64,000 nt of DNA from Escherichia virus TH06, in sequence record MT446386.1; one strand, given 5' to 3'. The notes below the pieces were generated by a model. The model ran no database searches, was not told the DNA's origin, and saw nothing but the letters and a program-made list of their open reading frames with translations. A program made the position numbers and the translations under genes. Below, in pieces: positions 2,222 through 48,553 of this stretch; position 1 is the stretch's first letter, and the number at the start of each line of letters is the position of its first letter.

Positions 2222-3026
2222 GCTCCCTGAAGTTGCTCTAGTGGATGCTGACGTTCTTCGATATGAAGTGGGTGCTCTTACTCAGGAGCATCCTTTTCTT
2301 GACACAGGACGTGTTCCAGTTGATTACAATTTCATGATTGAACGACTTCAGTACAAGATTGATACGATCATATCTCGCTCAGGTTGCAGTAAGGTTGTAT
2401 TCTACTTCAGCGAAGGTGGTAACTTCCGTTTCGATGTTGCTAAGCAACAAGACTACAAGGCAAACAGACCTCCCGGAGAAAGACCTTTTCATTGGCAAAA
2501 CGTTGGTGATTACATTAAAGCCAAGTACGAATACATTGAGGTCTTTGGGAGAGAAGCTGATGATGCACTAGCTGAAAGGCAACGTAGGGATAAGAATACT
2601 ATCATCTGTACCAGAGACAAGGATTTGTTGATAACTCCCGGATGGCATTATCGCTGGGCTTGTGGAGAAAGGCAGAAAGAAGTCCCTCCTCACTATGTAT
2701 CTGATTTAGTCTCATGGCAAAACTTCTTCTATCAAATGTTGATTGGAGACGGTACGGATAATATTTCCGGATGTGGGGAACGTGAAGAAGTCATGTGGGG
2801 TGGTAAGCTTCAGCTTCGACGTCAAGGAGTAGGGAAGAAGGCAGCAGCTAAATTACTAGCTGGTGTTACAGATAAGTGGACCATGTATCATATAGTACGA
2901 ATGGAATATTATAAGAAGTTCGATACTGAAGATGAAGAGAAGATGCTTGAGAATGCGCGGCTGCTCTTTGTTGGTCAGACTCCTGAAGACCTGTTCGACT
3001 GGACATGGTTAGATAAATCTTGGTAA
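2199..3026 (+). CDS. 5'-3' exonuclease / flap endonuclease (FEN family)
   Basis: Motifs LVDADVLRY, GREADDALA, ICTRDKDLL, IGDGTDNISGCG and GKKAAAKLL (H3TH-like); start uncertain among TTG 2184, ATG 2199, ATG 2208. Confidence 0.6.
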   Translation: MIFMEEVKLPEVALVDADVLRYEVGALTQEHPFLDTGRVPVDYNFMIERLQYKIDTIISRSGCSKVVFYFSEGGNFRFDVAKQQDYKANRPPGERPFHWQNVGDYIKAKYEYIEVFGREADDALAERQRRDKNTIICTRDKDLLITPGWHYRWACGERQKEVPPHYVSDLVSWQNFFYQMLIGDGTDNISGCGEREEVMWGGKLQLRRQGVGKKAAAKLLAGVTDKWTMYHIVRMEYYKKFDTEDEEKMLENARLLFVGQTPEDLFDWTWLDKSW

Positions 3027-3039
3027 TAAGGATATTATA

Positions 3040-3219
3040 ATGGGTAAATTTGATTATCGTTCATATGATGAAAACTACTCCAACCGTGAATCTCGTAAAG
3101 ACCAAAAGATTAAACATCAACTGTTTGATCAGAGAACTGGTCGTATTCCTCGTGAGGGTAAGGTGAGCCATCGTGTAAACAAACGAGTTTGGGAAGAAGC
3201 TGATTATGGCGAAGTCTGA
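3040..3219 (+). CDS. hypothetical small protein (59 aa)
   Basis: ATG preceded by AAGGA; below the track length cutoff; overlaps the next gene start. Confidence 0.3.
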   Translation: MGKFDYRSYDENYSNRESRKDQKIKHQLFDQRTGRIPREGKVSHRVNKRVWEEADYGEV

Positions 3220-4192: not shown

Positions 4193-7100
4193 TCACTCCT
4201 TAGGTCGAACTCTTACACGGAGTCTCGATTGACGCTTACTGCGTTCAAGCTTCTCTGACAATGAGCCACGTTTAATCTTCGGCTTCCCTTCGTCATTAAA
4301 CTTCTCCAAGAACTGCAAGTACTCAGTACGATTGGTTGTCTTGTAAGAAGGAATCTTAATATCAGGGTTCTCTTCAATTACACGTCTCATCTTCGCTACA
4401 TCATCCCTACCAAGCAACTTACTCTTAGCCTGTTCAGCTGTAGAACCAAAGATTTTCTCCAGTGCTCTGGATTTGTTACCACCTGCGGAAGAAGCACCAA
4501 GTTTAGCAATGGCAGAGTAATCATCAGCACTAAACCAAGCTACTGGATTATCACCATACTTCTTCTTGTTTTCAGCAGCAGTCTGCAATGCACGTACAAA
4601 GCGACGGTTGTTACCAGCCTTATCTGCACCATGAACCCTGTCTAAAACTTCAGCCACACTAACCAACTCATCCAAGCTTTTCCCACTCAAGAAAGCTTTC
4701 TCTACTTTATCAGCAAAGACCTCTTCCTGTTGTTTAATGCTTTCCAAGATATCAGAATTTGCTTGAGATCTTTCATCATCAGGCAGAGCAGAACGAATCT
4801 TCTCCATCTCCAACTCTTCCTCTTGCAGTTTCTTAATATCAGAGTCAACCTTCTGAGCCTCCTCAATAGCCTTCCTGGTATCCGCATCCAAGTTATCAAG
4901 CTTACCTTCAGTATCTCCAGTAACCTTAACAATCTCTTTCTCGATAGGGGTCATTGATTCATACTTCTTAGCAAACTTCTCAACATCAGCTTCGATACGA
5001 GAACGAGCATTCTGATGTTCAGTAGGAGTCATAGGCTTCTCAAGAAGTGCATAACGGTTATCCATATAGGAACCAGCAAATGCTTCAGCATCCTCTCTAG
5101 ATATGCCCTTATCTTCCATAGTACGCATCAGGCGGCGATGAATGTCATCACGTTGACGTTGTACTGCCATAAGGTCATTCTCACGCTCTTGGGCCGCTTT
5201 AAGCTCTTCACTGCGCTTAACTCTCTTGTCCACATCAAACTTACGGTTCATTTCTTCCGCTTGCTCATACATCTTGTTCCACTTGGCCTGACGAGCATCT
5301 TCCTCTGCATCAGTTAAACGACGCTGACGATCAAGGTAATCTGACTCGGCGTTGTGGATACGTTCAATGTAACTACGGAACTTCTCTGGAGGAACTGGAG
5401 AGTTCTTGTCATGGTGAGCAGCCAACTGTTTCAATGTACGAGATTCCTGAGCCTCACGAACAGGTTTAGGTAAACCTTCCATCATCTTCTCAATCTCACT
5501 CTTCTGAGCTGCAATAGCCTCTAGAGTTTTACGTTCATTCTCAACAGCAGCCTTAGCATCTGAACGAGCCTGAGCCTTTTTCCTGAGGGTAGCAAGACGT
5601 TCTTCACGAGCCTGTAAGTGCTTAGCAGCAGCTTCGTACTGAGAGTTCTTGTTAGCTTTGTTGAAGGCATTCACTTCTCTGTTGTAGGTGTTAATAAACC
5701 CATCCCAAATATCCTTCATCTGACCGACTTCCAAAGCCTCTTCCCTACCAGCCTTCTCTGAAGATTTAAACTTCCCATCTACAAAGTCATTCATCAGCTT
5801 ACGCATAGCATCTTTCTGAGCAGGACGTAAAGGTTCTGAATCAATCAAAGCATCAATCTCAGACTGAAGCTCTTTCTTCTGGTCAACCAGTTTAGGAGCA
5901 TCTTTCTTATCGAAAGCTTTGTTCTCTTCTAGAGCTTGTTGGTACAGTCTATCAAACTCATCCTCACGCTGCTTCTGATACAACCTTTCAGCACGACGTT
6001 TCAGACTATCCAAGTTAGTTACGTTCCCACCTAAACCTTTCTCTTCAGCACGTAATGCCTTAGTGGCAATGTCTTCTGGCAGACCACGTTCTTTAACCCA
6101 TTCAGCAAAATTAGTTCGTACAGTGTTGTTCTTAGCAGTAGCAATACCTTGCTGAGAGGCCAGCTGGTTACGAGCCATTTCTTCATGACGTTCAGTATTG
6201 ATAGCATTATCTTCCTGACGAATACGACGCATCAGTTCCTTAGGATCGCCTTTATAAGCCAAGAAGTTTTCAGCAGTAGCTTTAGCTTTAGCAGCCTTAG
6301 AGTACAGAGAACGAGCAAAGCGTTCTGCACGATCTTTAGTAGCCTGACGAGCAGCACTAGACATAGCAGCTAAACGTTCTACACCACTTGCCGGTTTAAC
6401 GTCCTGTACAGCTTCCTTAGGAGCTTTAGGAGCACGAGCAGGTAATGGCTCAGCTTTGACTGTTGGTTCCTCTACGGTTGGTTCTGGAGCCTGTGCGGCC
6501 TCTTCTTGAGCACGTTGCTGTTCCATTGCACGACGCTCCTCTAGAGGGTTACGAGCAGGGAGAGGTTCAGCCTGTGGAGCTTGTTCGACCGGAGCTTCTT
6601 GAGCTGCTGCTGCCTCTTCTTCAGCGCGACGCTGTTCAGCCTGACGGATAGCGCGTCTTTGCGCAACTAAATCACGAGCTGTGAGAGGGGTTTCTTGAGG
6701 AGTAGAAGAAGGAAGATTTTCTTCCGTCACAGTACTAGAAGAAGGCTCCCGAACCGGTTCGGTTTCCACGTCATTTTGCGTCTTAAATTTAATGTCATCA
6801 ACAACTGGTTCTTCTTCCATCTTAGCACGAGCTTCATCAGCAGTAGATTTAGCACGAGCAACTTCCAAATCACCACGAGCCAGAGAGCGGATAGCTTCAC
6901 TATTAGACTCTTGTTGCTTAACACGTTGAGAACGGGCACGCTGAGAAGAGAAGCGATTCAGAGCATATTTAGCAGCACCGAGAGTGTTCATCACCAGACT
7001 AGGAGAAGAAGCCTCACGGAATCCATCATCAGTCAAGGAAGTCCAACCACGATCTTGGTTGCTCATGAATTTAGCTGTATTGTTCAGAGTGTAAGCATCT

Positions 7101-8659
7101 TGAATAGGATTAAAACCTTCAGGCATACCTTTCAGTTTCTTCAACCCACCGATAGCTTTCTTCATCTCTGGAGAAACATTATCAGCCATCTTCTGTAGTT
7201 CAGTAGCTTTCTCTACAAAGTTATTAAAATCTTCACCTTCACGAGCTTTGAATCGATTTGCTTCATTGTAGAAAGTCTTGTAAGCATCAATGAAATCACG
7301 GTCAGCTTGTGTACGATTCTTAATATCAATCGGACTACCAGTAAAATCACCAGAAGCTCGGAGAGAAGTTAATTCACGGTCTAGGTTATCTAGAACATCT
7401 GTAAGAGCTTTCGTGTTGTCTTTGGTGTAGTCAGCCATTGCATCCTTCATAGCAACAGCCTGCTTCTGGTTGTGCTCATTATCAGCAAATGCTTTACCAC
7501 GAGTCTTAGCAGGAGAAGCTAAAGGATTAAGGCCCGGAATGTTGGAATGTTCTTTCTGAACAGAAGCAGCTTTCTCAGCACGAACTTGGTCAGTATTAAG
7601 AATACGCTGAGCAGCAGGAGAATCTACAGCAACAGCATCTGTAATACGGAATCCATTCTCATCCAGAAGGTTAAGAGCAGAAGCAGCGTTAGCAGTTTCA
7701 GCTTTAGAGTAAGCTTCTTTCAGTTCATCAATATTCTTAGCACTACGAATTAGTTCATCATCAGCAGCAATATCAGTCTTCGCATACTCTGGAGTATTCT
7801 TGAAGACAGCAGAATCCGGACGGCTAATCAAACCATGAACCCCACCAACTGCACCACCGAATGCAGCACCCATAGCACCTTCTTCGATAGCACCTTCTAA
7901 TACATTGGCAAAGGTTGTGTCATCTCCGTGCTTATTCTGAGCTTCAGCAGCACCCACAAGAGCACCACCTTTAGCACCAGCCACTGCGTTACTAGCAACG
8001 TTCTGACCAATACGTCCAAGTGTGGACTCAGCTGTACCGACAGCACCTGGAAGGATTCTCTGAGCCGCATAGTTAGCACCACCAACTAAGGCTGCATCTA
8101 GAATAGACTTATCTTCTCCCTCTTCAGGGGTTTGGTCTGCATATGCACGACCTGTCTCACGACCTGCGATGATAGCAGCAGCAGCCAATGGGTTAGCAAC
8201 TGTCAAACCGATATCACCAGCAACGCCAGCATACTGACCGACAGTTTTACCAATCCCATCCTCAATCTTATCCATACGTTCTTTCAGAAGGTTCTGAGAG
8301 TTCTCTTGGATACGCTTACCATAACTAGTTTGTGCTCCAGCTAGATTCTCACCAATCTCAACTAAACCACCAATACCTTTAGCAGCACTAGCTGCAATAT
8401 TTGCACCACCAGATTGAAGAGCATTTGACACACCTTGAGCAAACTCACCTATAGCACCACGTTCTTCTTGTTGTGGTTGTGCTACTGGTTGTTCCTCAGG
8501 AATAGAGCCACCTGCTGCCTTATATTGTTCTCTCATTTGAGCTTGTTGCTCCGGAGAGGCATTCAGATACGCAGGAGCTTTGGAAGCTTCTTCCCACGGT
8601 TTAATGTTAGCCATAACGTCTCCTTTTATAAATAAAAATGTCCTACCCCCTATATACAT
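4193..8659 (-). CDS. large internal virion / ejection protein (1488 aa)
   Basis: Last gene of late operon; long coiled-coil rich ORF; position analogous to podovirus internal core proteins. Confidence 0.45.
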   Translation of the reverse strand: MYIGGRTFLFIKGDVMANIKPWEEASKAPAYLNASPEQQAQMREQYKAAGGSIPEEQPVAQPQQEERGAIGEFAQGVSNALQSGGANIAASAAKGIGGLVEIGENLAGAQTSYGKRIQENSQNLLKERMDKIEDGIGKTVGQYAGVAGDIGLTVANPLAAAAIIAGRETGRAYADQTPEEGEDKSILDAALVGGANYAAQRILPGAVGTAESTLGRIGQNVASNAVAGAKGGALVGAAEAQNKHGDDTTFANVLEGAIEEGAMGAAFGGAVGGVHGLISRPDSAVFKNTPEYAKTDIAADDELIRSAKNIDELKEAYSKAETANAASALNLLDENGFRITDAVAVDSPAAQRILNTDQVRAEKAASVQKEHSNIPGLNPLASPAKTRGKAFADNEHNQKQAVAMKDAMADYTKDNTKALTDVLDNLDRELTSLRASGDFTGSPIDIKNRTQADRDFIDAYKTFYNEANRFKAREGEDFNNFVEKATELQKMADNVSPEMKKAIGGLKKLKGMPEGFNPIQDAYTLNNTAKFMSNQDRGWTSLTDDGFREASSPSLVMNTLGAAKYALNRFSSQRARSQRVKQQESNSEAIRSLARGDLEVARAKSTADEARAKMEEEPVVDDIKFKTQNDVETEPVREPSSSTVTEENLPSSTPQETPLTARDLVAQRRAIRQAEQRRAEEEAAAAQEAPVEQAPQAEPLPARNPLEERRAMEQQRAQEEAAQAPEPTVEEPTVKAEPLPARAPKAPKEAVQDVKPASGVERLAAMSSAARQATKDRAERFARSLYSKAAKAKATAENFLAYKGDPKELMRRIRQEDNAINTERHEEMARNQLASQQGIATAKNNTVRTNFAEWVKERGLPEDIATKALRAEEKGLGGNVTNLDSLKRRAERLYQKQREDEFDRLYQQALEENKAFDKKDAPKLVDQKKELQSEIDALIDSEPLRPAQKDAMRKLMNDFVDGKFKSSEKAGREEALEVGQMKDIWDGFINTYNREVNAFNKANKNSQYEAAAKHLQAREERLATLRKKAQARSDAKAAVENERKTLEAIAAQKSEIEKMMEGLPKPVREAQESRTLKQLAAHHDKNSPVPPEKFRSYIERIHNAESDYLDRQRRLTDAEEDARQAKWNKMYEQAEEMNRKFDVDKRVKRSEELKAAQERENDLMAVQRQRDDIHRRLMRTMEDKGISREDAEAFAGSYMDNRYALLEKPMTPTEHQNARSRIEADVEKFAKKYESMTPIEKEIVKVTGDTEGKLDNLDADTRKAIEEAQKVDSDIKKLQEEELEMEKIRSALPDDERSQANSDILESIKQQEEVFADKVEKAFLSGKSLDELVSVAEVLDRVHGADKAGNNRRFVRALQTAAENKKKYGDNPVAWFSADDYSAIAKLGASSAGGNKSRALEKIFGSTAEQAKSKLLGRDDVAKMRRVIEENPDIKIPSYKTTNRTEYLQFLEKFNDEGKPKIKRGSLSEKLERSKRQSRLRVRVRPKE

Positions 8660-15260: not shown

Positions 15261-18255
15261 ACTCTATCGTTAAACCATTGATAGCAGCATTACTGTTAAC
15301 ATCATTATCTATAACATTATAGAAAAGGTATGGATGGTTCAGCCTCACAGAGACATGCCTGTCAACACCAATTGTATAAGTCTTCGATGTGTGTGGGTGT
15401 CCGTATTCATTTGAGAATTGACTACCACCAGCTTCAAATATGTAAGTACCTGAACCGGTTGTCTGAGGCCGGAACCTGTTAATATGCTTCTGATTCCACT
15501 CATTAGTCACATTATCAAAATCTATACCAGTCCTCTCCAACCTCATTTCCAGAGGCTTCTCTATAACAACATCATTTAGCCTGTCATAGAAATAATCAAG
15601 AGCACCTACATCCACTTGATAGAATCCCTTCAAGAATGAACCTACTATCGTAACCCTCTGTCTAAAGTTTGTTGCATCCTTTCTCCAAACGAGTTCTTTA
15701 ATAGATGGGTCATCCCAAGTGATTTCTTGGAAGTCAGACCAGATTGGACCTCTTTCTAAAACAGGAGGATCAACCAGACCAATACACTGAGCATATGGTA
15801 TAGTACGGAAAGACCAAGTATCAAACTCGTAGTTCCATACAGCAGCTTTAGTACAAGCGAAGCTTTCTTTTGGCTCCCCCGGTCCTACATAGAGAACCCA
15901 AACTTCTTTCTTATCCTGATGCAAGTGCACTCGAGTTGCTAGAGGGTTAACCAGACACACCTCGTTAATCAGCATATTCTTGACACGGTTAGATGCAATT
16001 GACTTCTTGGTTGCACCATTATGCAAGATTACATCATTCTGAGTAACTACGAAATGACTACCTTCTACTTCAACCACGCACTCAGGAGCAAGGATACCAG
16101 AGTCGTTAAAGAGCTTCTTGAACATTAGAGGTTGGTACGTGTTATTAGTCGGAGAACCAATATACGTTTCAAACTCTGTATAAACGAACAAGTAATCTTT
16201 AAGAGGTAGGATATCAATCAAGCTACCATTAGAATCTGCTAGATCAATATAACCAGCATACCCATTCTCTAGAGCCTGAGTCTGACCTACGATGTTAGAA
16301 GCTAAGTCCGAAGACACAACTCGATCATAGGCAAAGTCATCCCACAGTGTAGGAGCCTTGTTCTCATTGGCAAAGTTAGACCAACGAAGACGAAGCGGAT
16401 AGTTAGTGGTAACACCAGAAGCATTAGCTTCTCTCATATTCAGAGCAAAAAGACGGTTGTTAAAAGATCTCACTCTCTCACATTTCCAGTTAAACTTCTT
16501 GACTGAAGGGTTTCCATCATTATCCACAACTGTTTGCTCACCCCATCCCGGAAGATCTACAAAGTATTCTGATTCGAATTCTTTTACCTGAGGAGTTTCA
16601 TAGTGAGTTGTAGCAACTGCACAGTTAGAGATAACAGCATGATACCAAGGATAGTCATCAAAAGCATCGTAATCTTTTTGAGTCATCTGACTAACAGTAC
16701 AAGTTACGTTAATCTCTCCTTTACGAAGAGCAACCAGTTTGATAGATTTACCAGTAACTGAGGTTGTAGAAACATAACCAGTCTTATCAACAGACCACTG
16801 ATAGGAGTACTCACCTTCCGGAGAAGCTGTGGCTGTAACAACAATCTCTTCACCAACATCAAGAGAAGCGCTGACAATATCTAAGGTGACAGATGACAAA
16901 GGAGTTGCGAGTAAAGAAGCTCTTGCAAAACCTTCAATGTCATTCACGTTAGAGTAGTCGTAGAAGTTGTTACCTTCATACATCCCTGACGTATCAATAC
17001 CGGATGTAGGCTCAGCAAAATAAACCGTCTCTTCACTTTCAGGAGGAGTTACTACTTCTTCCTCTTGAGTTTCTACTGACTCTGACACAGGAGCGGCAAA
17101 TGCCATAGCACTTGTTCTCATTGTCCTTCCAGCTAAATCCACACGTACAATACAGACAGCAACTCTGTTACCTTCTTCAGTGGTAGCTGTAATCTCAGTA
17201 AAACCAGCAAGTAGAGCGTTGATCGTCCCTTGTGTACTAGTCCCTGATACTGTTGCAATATTTGGATTAGAAGAGGTCCAAGTAATATTTTGATTAGGGG
17301 CGTTAGCAGGAGAAAGGGTAGCAGTTAAGATGTACTGAGAACCTCTACTCACAGTAACATCTGACTGGCTTAAAGAGATACTATCAATCTGAGGGATAGA
17401 AACAATCTCACAAGAAGCAGTCTTAGTCCCGTTATCAGCAGTGATTGTTACATTACCTTCTCCATTCGCTGTAATGACAGCAGTTAAAGAGTTGGCGTTA
17501 GGGGTTACGGATACAATAGAAGCGTTACTGCTGGACCAAGTTACAGGAGTCTTGCCAGTAACAGCCGTGAGAGTAGTAGTCCCTCCCTTACGAATTGTAA
17601 CAGTATCTTGACTCAAGAAGATGCCTGAATCACCATCTATGATATTAACAGCAATCTGAGCCACTACGGATTCATTGGCAGTAGAGATAGTTACTACAAG
17701 ATTACCCTCTTTCTCAAAAGATGTTAGAGTAGCAAGTTTAGAGTCACTAGGGTCTACTGTAATACTTCCATAAGATGAGTTACTAACCTCCCAAACAAGA
17801 TCAGTATTGTTGGCATCAGCAGGAAGAAGAGAAACCTCTAGATTCTTGGTCTGATTGAAGTTCATTGAGATGGTTGATTCTTTAGGAACAATCTGAGAAA
17901 CAACCGGATAAATCTTAATTGAGGCAGAAGCCTTTTTAGTGACTGTAGCAACCTTACGGCTAATATCAGTCAAGCTTTCATCTGTCAGTTTATATAACTT
18001 CTTATCCGTACCTACAACAAGAAAGCTATTACCTGCGCTATAATAATCGAAAGGCATAGAAATGAAAGACAGAGGGGTTAAATCCTTATCTTCATCTACA
18101 TAAGAAAGAGGGGCATTGCCCCCCGTCTTAAATACTCTCTGCTCAACAAACCGAGCATTTATAGCATTAGTGAAAGCATTAGGAGCTAAGTCTGTCGGAG
18201 CCTGATCAGCGATAACGCCTACAGCACCTAATGACTTTATTGGATACAGCGCCAT
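15238..18255 (-). CDS. large tail protein with Ig-like (Big_2-type) repeats
   Basis: 1005 aa; several Thr/Ser-rich beta-strand repeats resembling bacterial Ig-like domains. Confidence 0.45.
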   Translation of the reverse strand: MALYPIKSLGAVGVIADQAPTDLAPNAFTNAINARFVEQRVFKTGGNAPLSYVDEDKDLTPLSFISMPFDYYSAGNSFLVVGTDKKLYKLTDESLTDISRKVATVTKKASASIKIYPVVSQIVPKESTISMNFNQTKNLEVSLLPADANNTDLVWEVSNSSYGSITVDPSDSKLATLTSFEKEGNLVVTISTANESVVAQIAVNIIDGDSGIFLSQDTVTIRKGGTTTLTAVTGKTPVTWSSSNASIVSVTPNANSLTAVITANGEGNVTITADNGTKTASCEIVSIPQIDSISLSQSDVTVSRGSQYILTATLSPANAPNQNITWTSSNPNIATVSGTSTQGTINALLAGFTEITATTEEGNRVAVCIVRVDLAGRTMRTSAMAFAAPVSESVETQEEEVVTPPESEETVYFAEPTSGIDTSGMYEGNNFYDYSNVNDIEGFARASLLATPLSSVTLDIVSASLDVGEEIVVTATASPEGEYSYQWSVDKTGYVSTTSVTGKSIKLVALRKGEINVTCTVSQMTQKDYDAFDDYPWYHAVISNCAVATTHYETPQVKEFESEYFVDLPGWGEQTVVDNDGNPSVKKFNWKCERVRSFNNRLFALNMREANASGVTTNYPLRLRWSNFANENKAPTLWDDFAYDRVVSSDLASNIVGQTQALENGYAGYIDLADSNGSLIDILPLKDYLFVYTEFETYIGSPTNNTYQPLMFKKLFNDSGILAPECVVEVEGSHFVVTQNDVILHNGATKKSIASNRVKNMLINEVCLVNPLATRVHLHQDKKEVWVLYVGPGEPKESFACTKAAVWNYEFDTWSFRTIPYAQCIGLVDPPVLERGPIWSDFQEITWDDPSIKELVWRKDATNFRQRVTIVGSFLKGFYQVDVGALDYFYDRLNDVVIEKPLEMRLERTGIDFDNVTNEWNQKHINRFRPQTTGSGTYIFEAGGSQFSNEYGHPHTSKTYTIGVDRHVSVRLNHPYLFYNVIDNDVNSNAAINGLTIEFAVGGRR

Positions 18256-24911: not shown

Positions 24912-25661
24912 TTATACACGAGAAGTACGAATACCATAAATATCAGGCAAGCTGCTCTGAAGTCGAGTCATGTTATTCGGAATTGCGATAGGTGAACCTG
25001 AGTACTCTTGTTTCTTATTCTGTTCTACCATTTCATCAAGGATAGCTTTTCCTAATGCTGACCATTTCTGAACACCATTATCATCTTGAACAAAGAGACA
25101 AGCATGACGTAGGGTGAAGTACAGAAGAAGTTCTGGTGCTATAGTAAGAATAGTACTAGTATCTGTATCTTCATGGAATTCCGGTGGGTCTGCATAATAG
25201 CTAAGAATCACTGAGTTTTCTGCTGGAATCAAAGGGCTTCCATCATCAGGGTAGTACGGAGTATCTGCTTCGATGCTAGGGTAGAAAATGAAACGACTAC
25301 CGAAACGAGCAAAGTTGACAGGTTGGTTATTCCAGTGAGATGGGTTAATTGTTCCATGCTGTCTACGATAGCTAATCTCTTCAGGAGAGGTTACTTGGAA
25401 GATTGTGCCATCTTTGGCTCTCATCATCCATTGAGCTTCTAAGTAATCAGGAGGAATGTAAGCTACTCCATCTTTAATATCTAAATACACTTCTTTTTCC
25501 AGAGGAGGAATACGTAAGTTACGATAAATCTCTTTCTCTGCAAAGTTAATAAAGTTTGGAATTTGATTAACAAATTCGTCATCGTCCCTATCTGCCCAGA
25601 GGGCCACGGCCTTCTTTAGCCACCCATAGGTATTGATGGGGTATTGAACGTCAGGCAACAT
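24912..25661 (-). CDS. virion structural protein (putative head-tail adaptor)
   Basis: Strong RBS GGAAGGAGG 6 nt before the ATG at 25661; track start 25688 lacks an RBS. Confidence 0.4.
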   Translation of the reverse strand: MLPDVQYPINTYGWLKKAVALWADRDDDEFVNQIPNFINFAEKEIYRNLRIPPLEKEVYLDIKDGVAYIPPDYLEAQWMMRAKDGTIFQVTSPEEISYRRQHGTINPSHWNNQPVNFARFGSRFIFYPSIEADTPYYPDDGSPLIPAENSVILSYYADPPEFHEDTDTSTILTIAPELLLYFTLRHACLFVQDDNGVQKWSALGKAILDEMVEQNKKQEYSGSPIAIPNNMTRLQSSLPDIYGIRTSRV

Positions 25662-26163
25662 AGGATACCTCCTTCCAGTTTGTGCCATTGATTATCAGGC
25701 TTATTGTACTTGAAGAGACTCCAAACTTCCTAGCTAAAGCTCTAGCTCCGAACTGTCTGTCCCTCGGTTTATAGTTCTCTAAACAGAAAAGAACTTGTTC
25801 TTTAGTAAGCTTGGAATTAGGGTTATCCTCAAGATTCCTTGGTGTTGAGAGTTTTGTTTCATAAGCATGTACACAGTTTTCTTGTTGAGTACACCACTCT
25901 AGATTCTCAATCCTGTTGTCATCTTTTATTCCATTCTTATGGTTGACATAGTCCTTCCCTTCTACTTTAGGAAGAAAGAGTTCAGCTATGACCCTGTGCT
26001 CTAGGTATGATTTCTTCTTGAAGGTTAGTACACGATATCCCTTATTATTAATACATCCAGCACGTTGCCTTTTCTGTTTATTGAATATATTACTCATAGA
26101 CCAGAAAAGATGCCCTGTATTTGGGTTATATGTAAAAGCTCCTCTGAAATCTGGCATTGCCAT
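25651..26163 (-). CDS. HNH homing endonuclease
   Basis: HNH core YLEHRVIAELF...NHKNGIKDDNRIENLEW; inserted between capsid and tail genes and overlapping the downstream gene start. Confidence 0.6.
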   Translation of the reverse strand: MAMPDFRGAFTYNPNTGHLFWSMSNIFNKQKRQRAGCINNKGYRVLTFKKKSYLEHRVIAELFLPKVEGKDYVNHKNGIKDDNRIENLEWCTQQENCVHAYETKLSTPRNLEDNPNSKLTKEQVLFCLENYKPRDRQFGARALARKFGVSSSTISLIINGTNWKEVSYVA

Positions 26164-26231
26164 AGGTTGTCCTCCTTGTTATATGTAGACAAAGAATATA
26201 CATTACACACTGGCTTGTATAGGTCTTAAAA

Positions 26232-33656: not shown

Positions 33657-34289
33657 TTACTTACAATCACCAACGGACAGGTTAAACATCTTACCTAGAG
33701 CAATCGTCTCACCTTCCCACGGAAGTTCTGCACCCTTCTCTTCCTCTAAAAGAATAGAGCCGTCGACCAAAAATTTTTCGTAGTCTCGCAGTGCGTCGTC
33801 TACTAGCTCACTCTTGTGAATCCATGTAATTGTTTCTGTACCATCCTCTTCGATTCTAACATCACGATGCCATTCATCTTTGGAGGTAATATAATCATGG
33901 AGCATTTCGTATTCAGCTTCTTCAATCATCTCAATCATTGCACGAGCATAGTCAGGGAGGTGATCATGTTTAGTAGATTCGTATTCAACTACTTCCAGAG
34001 TAGAAGGCTTAGCCCGTGCAACTTCTTCAAGTACTTTTGAGCGATCTTTGTAGTAGTTCTCATATTTATCACCAATAGTACCGACTTGAAGTCCACGGTA
34101 TTGTTCTACTAAACTCATCATATCTTTCTTCTCCGTAATAGTTGGTTTAAGAATACTTCCACTATATAAATCTTGTACAGCCAATCCTGAAACATTTCCC
34201 ATAGTTTCTAAATGCTGTAAGCTACAACCAGATCGACATAGCTGTGAATTGTAATCGTTAAGGTCCATCGCTTGGATTAAATTATTCAT
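33657..34289 (-). CDS. hypothetical protein
   Basis: Start chosen at MNNLIQ with RBS AGGGAGA; track start 34364 would overlap the upstream gene. Confidence 0.4.
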   Translation of the reverse strand: MNNLIQAMDLNDYNSQLCRSGCSLQHLETMGNVSGLAVQDLYSGSILKPTITEKKDMMSLVEQYRGLQVGTIGDKYENYYKDRSKVLEEVARAKPSTLEVVEYESTKHDHLPDYARAMIEMIEEAEYEMLHDYITSKDEWHRDVRIEEDGTETITWIHKSELVDDALRDYEKFLVDGSILLEEEKGAELPWEGETIALGKMFNLSVGDCK

Positions 34290-34536
34290 TTGTATCTCCC
34301 TTGCTGTAATCTTTGTATGTTTCTTTTCTGTAAGTGCGGAATGCTCTGAAGAAGAGCCAACCAAAACTACTTACATCAATTGTAATATCGAAATCTGTTT
34401 CATCATCTAAATCAACAAGACGGCCTAAGCAAGTAGCTTCCATCCCTTCTTCAGAGTCACTGTTGACCACGAAAGCGTATGTCTCCGTTCTGAACCGAGG
34501 CACCATCTCTGATAAAAAGTCTAGTACTAAATTCAT
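34282..34536 (-). CDS. hypothetical acidic protein (84 aa)
   Basis: ATG preceded by GAGGAGAAG. Confidence 0.4.
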   Translation of the reverse strand: MNLVLDFLSEMVPRFRTETYAFVVNSDSEEGMEATCLGRLVDLDDETDFDITIDVSSFGWLFFRAFRTYRKETYKDYSKGDTNE

Positions 34537-34768
34537 AATTCTTCTCCTCTGAATAAGAGTATAAAGGGCACATCATAAGACCTACCCGTAAAGGCCACCT
34601 CACATTAACACCCGTGAGAATACCTGTATTCATTTTCGTAGTCTTCTTCAGAGAAGCTACCGTATTCATCTTCTGTCATACATCCCTCTGATAAAGTTAA
34701 GACATAAAGGGGACGTCATCTTTGATGACTACTTCACATTAAGGCACCCCCATAAAGGCCATGTCACG

Positions 34769-34933
34769 TTAAGGCCTATCCATCCATGTGCTGTGTTTAA
34801 GCTTACCACATTTACTACATCTCCAAGTGGACTTATAAAGGGTGTGAACTCTTTCATCCCCGTAAGCTTTGCGTATCCGATAGTACTCATGATCACATTT
34901 GAATTGCTTAATGATTAACTTAATTTTCCACAT
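34769..34933 (-). CDS. small Cys-containing protein (54 aa), first ORF of the late operon
   Basis: Hand-translated MWKIKLIIKQFKCDHEYY...WRCSKCGKLKH; below the track cutoff. Confidence 0.3.
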   Translation of the reverse strand: MWKIKLIIKQFKCDHEYYRIRKAYGDERVHTLYKSTWRCSKCGKLKHSTWMDRP

Positions 34934-35658
34934 AAGTTCTCTTTCAACCTTATATATAAGAGTTTAAAATTCTGATTTGACTGAGTAGGGCTAGCCGCTT
35001 CCCGCGCGTTTCCTAAAAGGGGGGAGTCCTCATTTAAAAAAGGGTTATTGGCAATGCCTTTACCTTCCTTTTCAACGTTCCACTTTTCCCCGTGCCTACT
35101 CCCCGTTATTCTTTCCCCGTGTATACCATCCTATTCATTAGCTACCCGTTTATTTAGTACCCCTTTAAAGAGTGAGAGAAAGGCTATACTCTGATAACGG
35201 TCTGTTAAGGCGTGATAATAACAGGTCTAATAATACCCCTAGTTACTACCCCATTCCCCCATAGTTACGTTGATAATAGTTTCAATAGTAATGATTATGA
35301 GTGCAATAATGATATATGTATTAATTAAGTGGATGATTGTGTTTCTTTTATTCTTTTCTTTTTCAGCGTGCCTTTGTGAGCGTAGCGAACGTCTTTGATG
35401 TTTGAGTTATACAATTATTTAAGTGGTATATTATTACCGCACTATCTTGCTATGTTTCCCCGTGGTCTGTTCTGCGGTTGTGTGTTCCCCGTTTGCCCTG
35501 GTCTGTTGGTCTGCTACCCGTAGCACCAGCGTAACACCCGTAGGATTAGTGTTATAAAGTAACAATAGCTAGTAAGCTGATTCTCTGAGTATGGAAAGTT
35601 TAGTAAATTAAATTCCTTTAGTTTTCAGTGAGTTATAAGAAAGTTAGAAAATAAATGG

Positions 35659-35686
35659 TTGACAGGTTTTTCCTTTATTATATAGT
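35659..35686 (+). promoter_or_regulatory. sigma70-type early promoter
   Basis: TTGACA, 16 nt spacer, TATAGT; A-rich upstream; about 45 nt before the ATG at 35731. Confidence 0.5.
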
Positions 35687-37913: not shown

Positions 37914-37941
37914 TTGACATGATTTTCCTTTATAGTAATAT
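37914..37941 (+). promoter_or_regulatory. sigma70-type promoter with A-tract UP-like element
   Basis: AAAAAAGGGTA TTGACA, 16 nt spacer, TAATAT; spacer resembles that of the 35659 promoter. Confidence 0.5.
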
Positions 37942-38070
37942 GAATCCCGTAGTAAGCAGTAAGTAACAACAAGTAGTAAAAACTCCTCGATAGGTGATTA
38001 GCATCACGGTAAAAGGCTTCAACGGGGAGCGGTAGGAATACCGACAGTAAGACGCACAATGAAGGTGCTA

Positions 38071-38084
38071 CGCTCTTTAAAAAT
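38071..38084 (+). repeat. copy 1 of CGCTCTTTAAAAAT motif
   Basis: Exact 14-mer. Confidence 0.6.
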
Positions 38085-38119
38085 CAGGCTAGAAAGTGAA
38101 AATATTCTTAAAAAGAGTA

Positions 38120-38179: not shown

Positions 38180-38194
38180 CCGCTCTTTAAAAAT
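38180..38194 (+). repeat. copy 2 of CCGCTCTTTAAAAAT motif
   Basis: Exact 15-mer followed by ATGA. Confidence 0.6.
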
Positions 38195-38449
38195 ATGATT
38201 TGTCTTACAGGTGGCGGTAACGTCATTACTATAAGGCGCTTAGTTGATCGCTAGAATTGATTCCTGATTCATACGTGAATAGGCGGACGAAGAGCAACAA
38301 AATAAGCCTCATTTGTTCGATACTTTCAAATGGTCGATGCTTGAAAGCGCACTAGATTCCTAAAAGACAAATCAGACTTATCATCTTGCCCTTTCGCAAA
38401 GATTCAAGCGAGATAAGGGAACGGAATAAAAGAAGATGATAAAAAGAGT

Positions 38450-38489: not shown

Positions 38490-38504
38490 CCGCTCTTTAA
38501 AAAT
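38490..38504 (+). repeat. copy 3 of CCGCTCTTTAAAAAT motif
   Basis: Exact 15-mer followed by ATGA. Confidence 0.6.
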
Positions 38505-38607
38505 ATGAATCATAAGTTTAAGCCTCACCGCTTAATCCTCAATCAAATAAAGCTGATTGATATATCCTCCCAATAGCGGGAACGACGAAAAAAGATTAAA
38601 AAAGTGG

Positions 38608-38725: not shown

Positions 38726-38740
38726 CCGCTCTTTAATAAT
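38726..38740 (+). repeat. copy 4 (variant) CCGCTCTTTAATAAT
   Basis: One mismatch relative to the other copies. Confidence 0.5.
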
Positions 38741-39557
38741 TTAAACATTCTCCTATATCGGTTGAATATGCTTGATGATAATAACCATCGGAAAGCATAC
38801 CAGATAAAACGGTGTAAGATTCTCTAAACTATCAGAGAAAACAATCTTACAATCCCTTGCTGGAAACGTCACCACTGATAAACGGATTCATTGAGTGTAC
38901 GCAAAGACTTAAGCTAATCGCCCACGGTTAAGGGTAGCGGCGGTCATCGCTAACAAGGCGCTACAGTGAAAGAAGTTAATCAGGGTAGGCAAGCCCGAAG
39001 AATTAACGCTCAATTGAGAGCGGCGGGGAGTGGTTAAAAAGTGGCAAATTGCTATTTAACAATAAGGTTTAGTGTGAACGTTTACGATGTGAATGATTTG
39101 AGGCCACTATCGATGGCGTACATAGTCAGTTTATGTAGTAAACTTGCCGAAAGATATAAAACGTCAGAACATTAGACGGTCAATGACTCTTTCACAATAG
39201 CATCCCGTTGTGGGCGATGGCTAGTGATTGAGAGTTGATACAAAAGGATAGGCGAGAGCGAAAGCAAAGTAGACGATATTGCCGACGGTTACAATAAACG
39301 TAACTAATTAGAGTCGGACGCACTGCCTTATTGTGATGATTGATCATCGCTATCAGGTCGGCTTCGTTTATAGCGACTAATTAAAGATACCAGATGAAAC
39401 ATCACGGATAAGGGGGCGGCAAGGTTAACTCCTGATAAGACCGCCCCGCTTATCAATAATTACTTAACAATGAGTGGTTATTGATAAGTTAATAGTGACT
39501 TAAACAAGCTCATAGAGAGCGGGGCAATAGCGCCCTTACAATTGAAAGGTGAATATC

Positions 39558-41283: not shown

Positions 41284-41727
41284 GTGGCTAAATCAAAAAT
41301 CAGCATGAAGGGCGGGCGTTGTTTTGCTATCTCTGAACTGGAGAAAGAGAAGCCAAAGGCAACCAATCACGTCAGCAAGCGTAGTTTAAAACGTCGTGCT
41401 GCAAAGGCTGAGGCTGAATCTCATGTTCCTTCTAGTATACCTAAGCGCGTAGGCCATCGCGTTCATCGTGCTGATGCGTTATTGTTAGCTGATCATAAAC
41501 GATCTTTGTTACAGAGCGGGGGCGCTAAAACAGAAGAAGAGAAGAAGTTAGAAATCTTCTGTAATGGTCGCACCCGTGGTAAACAGAAGTTTAAGGGTAG
41601 CACGAAAGACCCGCAGGCTTTCCCTAAGACAAGCCAATGCGCACCTGATGTTTTCTACGCAGACAGTAAACATAAATGGGGCGTTGAGAAATACATTGAC
41701 CCCATCAAAGAGGCAAGGGTTAAGTAG
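41284..41727 (+). CDS. basic hypothetical protein
   Basis: GTG start 8 nt after AAGGA; Lys/Arg-rich. Confidence 0.4.
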   Translation: MAKSKISMKGGRCFAISELEKEKPKATNHVSKRSLKRRAAKAEAESHVPSSIPKRVGHRVHRADALLLADHKRSLLQSGGAKTEEEKKLEIFCNGRTRGKQKFKGSTKDPQAFPKTSQCAPDVFYADSKHKWGVEKYIDPIKEARVK

Positions 41728-41806
41728 TAGGAATATAGCCCCTCTTTTAGTACTATGACGCTCTTTCTGTAGCGTCGTGCCCTCTCCCCATTTGAAGATT
41801 CCGCAT

Positions 41807-41829
41807 AGCCGCCTTTGAGCGGCTTTTTG
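41807..41829 (+). terminator. intrinsic terminator
   Basis: AGCCGC-CTTTGA-GCGGCT then TTTTT. Confidence 0.65.
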
Positions 41830-41891
41830 CGTTGCTGTAAGTGCATTTGCGAGTGTATTTATAGCAACGGTCATGTGTTGCTTTCAGGTTT

Positions 41892-41918
41892 GCCCCGGCT
41901 ACGGCTGGGGCTTTTTTA
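41892..41918 (+). terminator. intrinsic terminator
   Basis: GCCCCGGC-TACG-GCTGGGGC then TTTTTT. Confidence 0.6.
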
Positions 41919-41966
41919 TGCCCGTAAAACAGGAGGTATCAAGTTCTGATAACAACGGCCCAGCTA

Positions 41967-43552: not shown

Positions 43553-43655
43553 TATAGCCCTTGTGTTTATCAGAGGGCTATGTGAGGGTGTTCCTCATTA
43601 ACTTATTAATTCAGGCATATGCCACACCGCTAGGGAGAGCTTGCTCGAACATCCG
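43553..43655 (+). repeat. conserved ~100 bp element, copy 1
   Basis: Shares TATAGCC hairpin with GAGGGCTATGTGAG, GCTAGGGAGAG and CTCGAACATCCG with 49016..49126. Confidence 0.55.
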
Positions 43656-43902
43656 GTGTTAGACTAAAACCTGTTCAATTTCGGTAGACTTTCCACTACG
43701 TAGGGGTACGTATTGGTTTGGGATTCAGGAGATCTCCTAGGGGTAGGAGGTCTTCACCAGTTGGGATAAGAGATAGCTCTAGAACCTGAACTCTTAGGCA
43801 GAGAGGGTCGGCAATGAGTACGCGGTCAGAATTAGCCTCCTGACTAGGGCTATCCCTTATATCAACTGGCAATAATGCCTCCACTAATAAAGAGAGAACG
43901 TT

Positions 43903-48330: not shown

Positions 48331-48447
48331 ATGAGACGTAAAGCATATTCTTATGACGATATGATTAACCAGAAAGGCTTCGGTCAACGACAGCCTGACG
48401 GTTCAATTATCTGGTTCGTAAACGGACAGAAAAAGGTAGCTAAATAG
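48331..48447 (+). CDS. hypothetical small protein (38 aa)
   Basis: Hand-translated; weak support. Confidence 0.2.
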   Translation: MRRKAYSYDDMINQKGFGQRQPDGSIIWFVNGQKKVAK

Positions 48448-48553
48448 GCTCTCTTCTCTCCTCCTTTTAGTACTATGACGCCTCTCTGTGGGCGGCCCAA
48501 TTTGCGTAGGGAATTCCCTCTACGCAGCCATAACTTTTTAAGGAATTTCCCCT

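Follow-up and report, generated by a model that had tools for sequence, protein, structure and literature searches.

A 10-mer, TACTRTGACG, occurs at three fixed places in the DNA of a phiEco32-like coliphage, and its sequence makes it very likely a homologue of the nick-associated motif of related phages. The three sites are read here as conserved recognition sites for a phage nickase that would cut TACT/RTGAC in the motif strand, a reading to which a probability of roughly 60% is given. By analogy, it is reasonably likely that Kuravirus virion DNA is nicked at the three predicted sites, and this coliphage group probably carries three such nicks that have not been previously reported. We infer the nicks in Kuravirus DNA, their timing and the responsible enzyme by comparison with other nicked phages.

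The window, meaning the whole 64-kb stretch of DNA that was analyzed, was known from a sequence-only reading to contain an identical 17-mer at two distant sites. A pattern search confirms that TTTTAGTACTATGACGC is present exactly at both places, in both cases on the plus strand, and the exact repeat shared by these copies extends to 18 nt, CTTTTAGTACTATGACGC. A motif search allowing mismatches on both strands raises the number of sites from the two initially described to three. The copies and the predicted nick positions are as follows.

41745 to 41761, plus strand: copy 1 of the 17-mer, core TACTATGAC at 41751-41759, then G41760
T41754/A41755, plus strand: predicted nick of copy 1, by analogy with phage tf (PMC3517423)
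48465 to 48481, plus strand: copy 2 of the 17-mer, core TACTATGAC at 48471-48479, then G48480
T48474/A48475, plus strand: predicted nick of copy 2, by analogy with tf
6724 to 6740, minus strand: third copy, TTCTAGTACTGTGACGG, core TACTGTGAC at 6734 to 6726
T6731/G6730, minus strand: predicted nick of the third copy, by analogy with tf

Copies 1 and 2 lie in the early region, which is transcribed on the plus strand. Strong sigma-70-like promoters were called by the promoter scan upstream of both 17-mers, at 35659, 38120 and 38608, in agreement with the early promoters listed for phage SU10. As originally described, both copies follow stop codons, namely TAG 41725-41727, which ends ORF 41284-41727, and TAG 48445-48447, which ends a 38-codon ORF, and both have pyrimidine-rich 5' flanks. 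The two copies lie at the ends of two early gene groups. Their supposed position before a next transcription unit is not demonstrated; the scan gives no promoter-like site between either copy and the next gene. The following hairpins are found downstream of the two copies.

41807 to 41830, plus strand: intrinsic-terminator-like hairpin AGCCGC-ctttga-GCGGCT with a T run, about 50 nt downstream of copy 1
41892 to 41920, plus strand: second terminator-like hairpin downstream of copy 1, from the scan
48503 to 48526, plus strand: 10-bp hairpin without an adjacent T run, downstream of copy 2

The phage lacks phiEco32 genes 119 ("agglutinating adhesin") and 118; this deletion, at window 41920-41926 relative to phiEco32 2390-3190, follows closely on copy 1 and its two terminator-like hairpins. 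The records of NJ01, PE006 and MN03 start at a distance of 100-500 bp from site 1 rather than at the predicted nick, and these starts were not counted as evidence.

The argument that such a repeat is unlikely by chance stands only in part. An exact 17-mer direct repeat arises in 17% of order-1 Markov 64-kb sequences, and an 18-mer in 6.7%, so that the repeat itself is weakly improbable. Its significance comes not from its length but from the conservation of its core at syntenic sites in diverged phages. A larger duplication is ruled out, since alignment of 270 nt around each copy reveals similarity around the 17-mer only, over approximately 25 nt and a small hairpin. What copies 1 and 2 share is the repeat, a few pyrimidines 5' of it and a short hairpin 3' of it.

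Comparison with related phages defines the conserved element more closely. In phiEco32, the same two sites are found at orthologous places, between genes 120/119 and 94/93, with TACTGTGAC at site 1. The whole genomes of phiEco32 and SU7 contain three TACTRTGAC each, syntenic with the three window copies. Sites 1 and 2 were also collected from Paul, EP335 (Nieuwekanaalvirus), KarlSchell/KBNP1711, and ECBP2 and SU7 (Suseptimavirus). Among 11 distinct site-1 and site-2 sequences from four diverged lineages, the sole invariant columns are TACT-TGACG, with R being A or G at either site. In the 5' flank, TTTTAG gives way to GTCAAC, TCAAC, TTTAAC, CTTTAGC, TTGCAAC or TTTGCAAC, and the 3' flank varies as well. 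At all three window copies, TACT[A/G]TGAC is followed by G, and the orthologous copies in seven phages match. Because only TACT-R-TGAC-G is invariant, the functional unit is the 10-mer TACTRTGACG rather than the 17-mer first noticed, which is a Kuravirus-specific extension. The positions of the sites are conserved among relatives although the flanks diverge. The motif is not statistically over-represented in Kuravirus, with three copies against about 1.3 expected; the window, phiEco32 and SU7 each have three against 1.2-1.4. Copies 1 and 2 are on the plus strand of the window and copy 3 on the minus strand, all three on the local sense strand.

Outside Kuraviruses, the 16-mer was encountered in IMG/VR in eight cyanopodovirus (S-CBP1-like) contigs, a number estimated not to exceed chance for the collection. 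These contigs hold TTTAGTACTRTGACGC in a single conserved coding site, with both R variants, and the match was judged to be accidental.

The third copy provides a separate view of the conservation of the core. It is located 1.9 kb within a gene, inside the 1488-codon ORF 4193-8659 on the minus strand, a homologue of phiEco32 late gene 26. When this low-complexity coding region is aligned across eight phages, the mean column identity is 69% and the longest invariant run is TACTGTGACGGAAGA. Fourfold-degenerate positions are invariant at 3/3 places within the motif versus 4/16 in the flanking conserved codons; this freezing of synonymous sites has P ~0.016, with few independent lineages.

The core TACTATGAC, or TACTGTGAC at phiEco32 site 1, is the nick-associated sequence of the phages tf, Rembedalsseter and Ab22. 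Sequencing, primer extension and denaturing gels sensitive to ligase located 14 single-chain interruptions with the consensus 5'-TACT/RTGMC-3' in the Pseudomonas putida phage tf (PMC3517423). More than 90% of molecules carry the nick, which can be ligated and lies just 3' of the fourth base; tf mostly has the variant TACTGTGAC, LUZ24 and PaP3 mostly TACTATGAC (PMC3517423). In tf, nicking is lost when TACT is altered to TATT or CACT. Nanopore strand coverage of Rembedalsseter falls at 13 WACTRTGAC sites (PMC11780129), and reads of the LUZ24-like phage Ab22 pile up at GTACTRTGAC, that is, at GTACTATGAC/GTACTGTGAC (PMC4482731). The published range of the TACT/RTGAC motif covers about 61 Pseudomonas phages. 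No report of nicks or of the motif in phiEco32-like phages or in Salmonella phage 7-11 was found in the literature searched, in which phiEco32 was covered partially.

Enrichment and strand bias of the motif are pronounced in the relatives. LUZ24 has nine copies of TACTRTGAC and tf has 12, each against approximately 0.6 expected, and all copies in LUZ24 (9 sites) and tf (14 sites) are on the top strand. The base after the motif is mostly G in both phages, and the base before it is also G in LUZ24, as in the Kuravirus 17-mer. Phage 7-11 contains 12 TACTRTGAC and one TACTGTGCC against 1.4 expected, with 11 of the 12 copies on the early/middle sense strand, clustered at the early end. Across 36 primase-helicase-anchored IMG/VR loci, all 57 occurrences of the motif are on the primase-coding strand, with none on the opposite strand, where about five would be expected. 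Vibrio phage Vp_R1 shows TACTRTGA in a 7:0 ratio on the early sense strand within 23 kb; here the last motif base is relaxed and, together with Aeromonas phage LAh_9, this phage indicates that specificity may have drifted or that the link between protein and motif may be imperfect.

The RTG of the motif sometimes coincides with an annotated ATG or GTG start codon. This is the case for tf sci1, sci4 and sci11 (tf_04, tf_15 and tf_41) and for 7-11 gp138 and gp089, at record positions 83744 and 57087. A frequent location of motifs at gene starts is also noted in the literature (PMC11780129). The coincidence may reflect faulty annotation or a genuine coupling.

The phage itself belongs to a clade sharing core genes with LUZ24-like phages, as judged by sequence homology. 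The window derives from a phiEco32-like coliphage (Kuravirus), 91-95% identical to many records, and corresponds to phiEco32 35107 to 1 joined to 77554 to 47326, reverse-complemented, with about 12 kb of middle genes falling outside it. Positions 1 and 77554 of phiEco32, the physical ends of its genome with 193-bp terminal repeats, map within the window, at ~34273-34993, so that the source record is circularly permuted with respect to phiEco32. Window ORFs with homologues in LUZ24 and tf include the large terminase (37-40%), portal, scaffold and major capsid proteins, two tail/virion proteins, the 5'-3' exonuclease, the DEDDh exonuclease, the primase-helicase (45-47% identity) and the amidoligase cluster. 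The whole phiEco32 genome adds the DNA polymerase (35-40%) and gp58 to this shared set.

Taken side by side, the Kuravirus sites resemble the nick sites of tf, LUZ24 and Rembedalsseter in the identical 9-mer, in the use of both R variants and in the preference for G as the next base. They also resemble those of tf and LUZ24 in having copies on the sense strand of early genes and positions conserved among relatives, within phages that share replication and morphogenesis core genes and a convergent early/late architecture. There are also differences. There are three copies per ~77-kb genome here, in contrast to 9-14 per ~45 kb, and they lie on both physical strands, with the late-region copy in sense orientation here and antisense in tf and LUZ24. 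In Kuravirus, a hairpin and a pyrimidine-rich 5' flank accompany every copy, E. coli is the host, and the nicks are predicted. Phage 7-11 (Moazamivirus, a phiEco32 relative) resembles Kuravirus in carrying the motif on the early/middle sense strand and in encoding a gp58-like, putative HNH protein. Its flank consensus, aAC-TACTGTGAC-G, is that of the Suseptimavirus and Nieuwekanaalvirus copies. Unlike Kuravirus, it has 12-13 copies, mostly within genes and without hairpins. Weighing against the nick-site reading are the lack of enrichment of the three copies, their distribution over both physical strands, and a hairpin and pyrimidine flank unlike those of tf, LUZ24 and 7-11.

The phiKMV-like phages (5'-CGACNNNNNCCTA/CTCCGG-3') and T5 (5'-R/GCGCRGG-3') have virion-DNA nicks of the same kind, site- and strand-specific and ligatable, with recognition sequences and phage groups unrelated to Kuravirus. 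For the phiKMV-type site CGACNNNNNCCTACTCCGG, a single match with three mismatches was found in the window, against 2.1 expected by chance.

The hairpins adjoining the motif are a further feature of the Kuravirus sites.

41757 to 41776, plus strand: hairpin GACGCT-cttctgt-AGCGTC (8 nt loop), MFE -9.0, top 1% of genome background
48479 to 48494, plus strand: hairpin CGCCT-ctctgt-GGGCG, MFE -7.4, top 3%, directly 3' of the motif
6708 to 6728, minus strand: hairpin in the GGAAGA...TCTTCC region, MFE -7.6, top 3%, coding, directly after the third copy

A hairpin stands directly 3' of each Kuravirus copy, with its 5' arm starting in GACG. At copy 1, the 5' arm overlaps the last three motif bases, and at copy 2, the hairpin overlaps the last base of the motif. 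Folding energies are in the top 1-3% of the background at the three copies, and likewise in phiEco32, SU7, EP335 and ECBP2; for the third copy, the MFE is -8.3 in phiEco32 and -6.7 in SU7. The stems differ compensatorily by copy and lineage, being GACGCT/AGCGTC, CGCCT/GGGCG or AGGCG, and GACGCTC/GAGCGTC. The copy-1 stem is altered in SU7 and ECBP2 and absent in KarlSchell, while the 9-mer stays. The copy-2 stem has U-A in phiEco32 versus U-G in the window, and EP335 has GACGCT/AGCGTC there. The hairpins at SU7/ECBP2 site 1 and EP335 site 2 carry a T run and are terminator-like; the motif-adjoining hairpins of the window lack one and do not qualify as intrinsic terminators. When folding was compared with the background, such hairpins were not a feature of the tf, LUZ24 or 7-11 sites.

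According to the mechanism proposed here, the 17-mer would be the Kuravirus-specific long form of a strand-specific 10-bp DNA signal, TACT/RTGAC-G. A nickase acting in mid or late infection would recognize the motif and cut one strand, and in Kuravirus the adjacent hairpin may aid recognition. The cuts would fall at 41754/41755 and 48474/48475 on the plus strand, which is the early sense strand, and at 6731/6730 on the minus strand, which is the sense strand of the gp26-like gene. The phage enzyme would leave, after the fourth base, a ligatable nick with 3'-OH and 5'-phosphate ends in the packaged DNA. The nicks would be packaged and then resealed after injection, as described for other nicked phages.

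Of the three functions offered by the sequence-only reading, an endonuclease site is the one favored here, as it matches the nick consensus, while RNA processing becomes a lesser rival and a promoter finds no support. As an RNA-level element, UACURUGACG with its hairpin would be a processing site, a 3'-end stabilizer or a terminator/attenuator at operon boundaries, and the match to the nick consensus would be irrelevant or secondary. This proposal agrees with the location of all three Kuravirus copies on the transcribed sense strand, of copies 1 and 2 just past stop codons, and of a hairpin directly after each copy; the pyrimidine-rich 5' flank suits it too. Compensatory stem differences (C-G vs T-A, U-A vs U-G) speak for it, as do the T runs on the SU7/ECBP2 site-1 and EP335 site-2 hairpins and the terminator annotated by the SU7 authors. 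However, the invariant part is the unpaired 9-mer, which KarlSchell keeps at site 1 without a hairpin, and in tf this 9-mer has been proven to be nicked in the DNA, also at two copies that are antisense to late genes. The copies in 7-11, tf and LUZ24 are mostly within coding sequence and lack hairpins, the window hairpins have no T runs, and no Rfam family is found at the sites. With Rfam 15 (gathering and E-value thresholds), a tRNA alone passes in the window; a weak MicX match (25.8 vs 75 bits) covers the terminators downstream of copy 1. An RNA-level function is considered unlikely. Similarly unlikely is a site of the shared replication or packaging machinery that stays un-nicked in Kuravirus, such as a place for primase-helicase priming or loading, or for terminase pausing or recognition. 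The core of T7-type primase sites is GTC, which the complement of the motif contains. Moreover, the motif tracks the primase-helicase clade with an absolute strand bias, a purine always follows the nick, and Kuravirus keeps only three copies, suggesting that a dense nick pattern is not needed. Nothing in the analysis links primase or terminase to the sequence, however, and the motif coincides with a nick wherever it has been examined experimentally (PMC3517423, PMC11780129, PMC4482731).

A promoter or operator is far less probable than either of these. TACTAT could be taken for a -10 element, agreeing with TATAAT at 5/6 positions, and TAGTACTA is an 8-bp palindrome that a dimeric regulator might bind. 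Nevertheless, candidate -35 elements match at no more than 3/6 positions, TG is missing at -15/-14, and the site is not called by the scan. The gp36-dependent middle/late promoter consists of a single element, tAATGTAtA, 6-8 nt upstream of the start (PMC8948821); its forms TAATGTATA/TAATGTAGA occur in the window at 8653, 26197 and 33612 only, and none is near the 17-mers. The published SU10 list (Table S2) has no entry at equivalent positions. A gp36 or sigma-70 promoter was rejected on the scan, the element positions and SU10 Table S2 (PMC8948821). The palindrome TAGTACTA is destroyed in SU7, ECBP2, EP335 and KarlSchell (AAC-TACT...) while the 9-mer is kept, which speaks against an operator; one copy lies 1.9 kb inside a gene, and the relatives' copies are mostly in coding sequence. 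Hardly credible, finally, is a chance or neutral short repeat without function. An exact repeat of 17-18 nt does appear in 7-17% of random 64-kb sequences, and three 9-mers are within about 2 SD of expectation. Against it, the 10-mer is invariant at three syntenic sites, including synonymous positions, while its flanks have diverged, and relatives show strong enrichment and strand specificity of this 9-mer.

Two further repeated elements were observed. The sequence CCGCTCTTTAAAAAT, which is boxA-like, occurs four times on the plus strand, at 38070-38088, 38180-38198, 38490-38508 and 38726-38744, and two of the copies are identical over 19 nt; apart from the 17-mer repeat, no other exact 18-mer is repeated in the window. 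The scan calls strong early sigma-70-like promoters a short way upstream of three copies, at 37914, 38120 and 38608, and the copy at 38490 presumably follows the third SU10-type early promoter, which the scan did not call. The core of the repeat, GCTCTTTAA, resembles the boxA antitermination element of E. coli rrn and lambda. Such boxA-like repeats could account for transcription passing through the many terminator-like hairpins of the early region. A boxA/nut-like reading of CGCTCTTTC in the copy-1 hairpin was dropped, as copy 2 has no match. The other element is intergenic and present in two copies on the plus strand, at 43555-43660 and 49025-49130, where a hairpin TATAGCC...GGGCTATGTGAG is followed by the conserved boxes GCTAGGGAGAG and CTCGAACATCCG. 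It has no Rfam match and may be a structured RNA.

Returning to the nick-site reading, the best candidate for the enzyme is the putative HNH-like protein gp58 of phiEco32, of ~100 aa, whose gene is located outside the window. At 105 aa, gp58 is the most conserved protein common to phiEco32, 7-11, LUZ24 and tf, with 51-75% identity. A gp58-like protein is present in all motif-bearing groups sampled; a search of the sampled primase relatives without the motif, with loci extending over the neighboring exonuclease and polymerase genes, did not find it. In total, 246 phage records encode a protein of this type. As a counter-example, Aeromonas phage LAh_9 encodes a gp58-like protein and has no TACTRTGAC in 40 kb. 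In phiEco32, gene 58 is expressed from a gp36-dependent middle promoter (PMC4331800). The gp58-like ORF at LUZ24 15622-15933 and tf 16126-16416 is in a frame different from that of the annotated gp26 and tf_29, the latter described as "contains transmembrane domain"; these two annotations are probably wrong-frame calls.

The assignment of gp58 to HNH proteins draws on several partial matches. Invariant residues of the gp58-like proteins form a (D/G)H...N...NL...N pattern, and nine of 11 members give weak Pfam HNH matches, the best with E = 0.003. Single gp58-like sequences gave no Pfam match at E <= 0.01, and the gp58 profile found no match among PDB sequences. The AlphaFold model of gp58 has a pLDDT of 70, and its Foldseek matches are non-significant (E > 1); nearly all are HNH/beta-beta-alpha-metal nucleases, including one nicking HNH enzyme. 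Some database sources name gp58 relatives HNH. The link between gp58 and the motif is correlative, and the HNH assignment is sub-threshold in every single test. Compared with small phage HNH nickases (Gme 4h9d, I-HmuI-type), gp58 shares the D/G-H...N...N-L core and weak Pfam HNH matches, and its predicted beta-beta-alpha core superposes, in the model, on HNH nucleases. Unlike them, it lacks zinc-binding cysteines. Neither its sequence nor its fold gives a significant match, and it is a conserved core gene, not a homing endonuclease.

Probable homing endonucleases were considered for the same role. The HNH_3 enzymes encoded by window ORF 25654-26178 and by phiEco32 gp31 are not conserved across motif-bearing phages, and an HNH_3 endonuclease as the nickase is unlikely, being also absent from tf. 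The window ORF, on the minus strand among capsid/tail genes, has a Pfam HNH_3 match (E = 5e-13). As it is LUZ24 gp30-like and absent from phiEco32, it is probably a mobile homing endonuclease.

T5 has been known for about 50 years to carry site-specific nicks in its virion DNA, and phiKMV-like and LUZ24-like phages joined it later; the function of such nicks, and in most cases the enzyme, is unexplained (PMC3517423, PMC11780129). If Kuraviruses are nicked, the phenomenon would enter a genetically easy E. coli system with a mapped transcription program. It would offer three sites to mutate, two of them between genes and one open to synonymous change, together with a concrete candidate gene for deletion. 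The nicks would also have consequences for nanopore and library coverage when Kuravirus therapy candidates are sequenced, as many now are.

For the podophage clade as a whole, a more speculative proposal, doubtful at present, is that the gp58-like proteins are a clade-wide, cysteine-less, minimal HNH nickase writing TACT/RTGAC nicks, and that Kuravirus has been pared down to three hairpin-coupled, sense-strand nicks at fixed positions. The clade with gp58-like proteins (50-75% identity) comprises phages of Pseudomonas, E. coli, Salmonella, Vibrio, Proteus and Cronobacter. If this proposal is true, three fixed nicks would imply a position-specific role rather than a bulk one, such as staged DNA entry, starts of recombination or replication, or the marking of operon ends.
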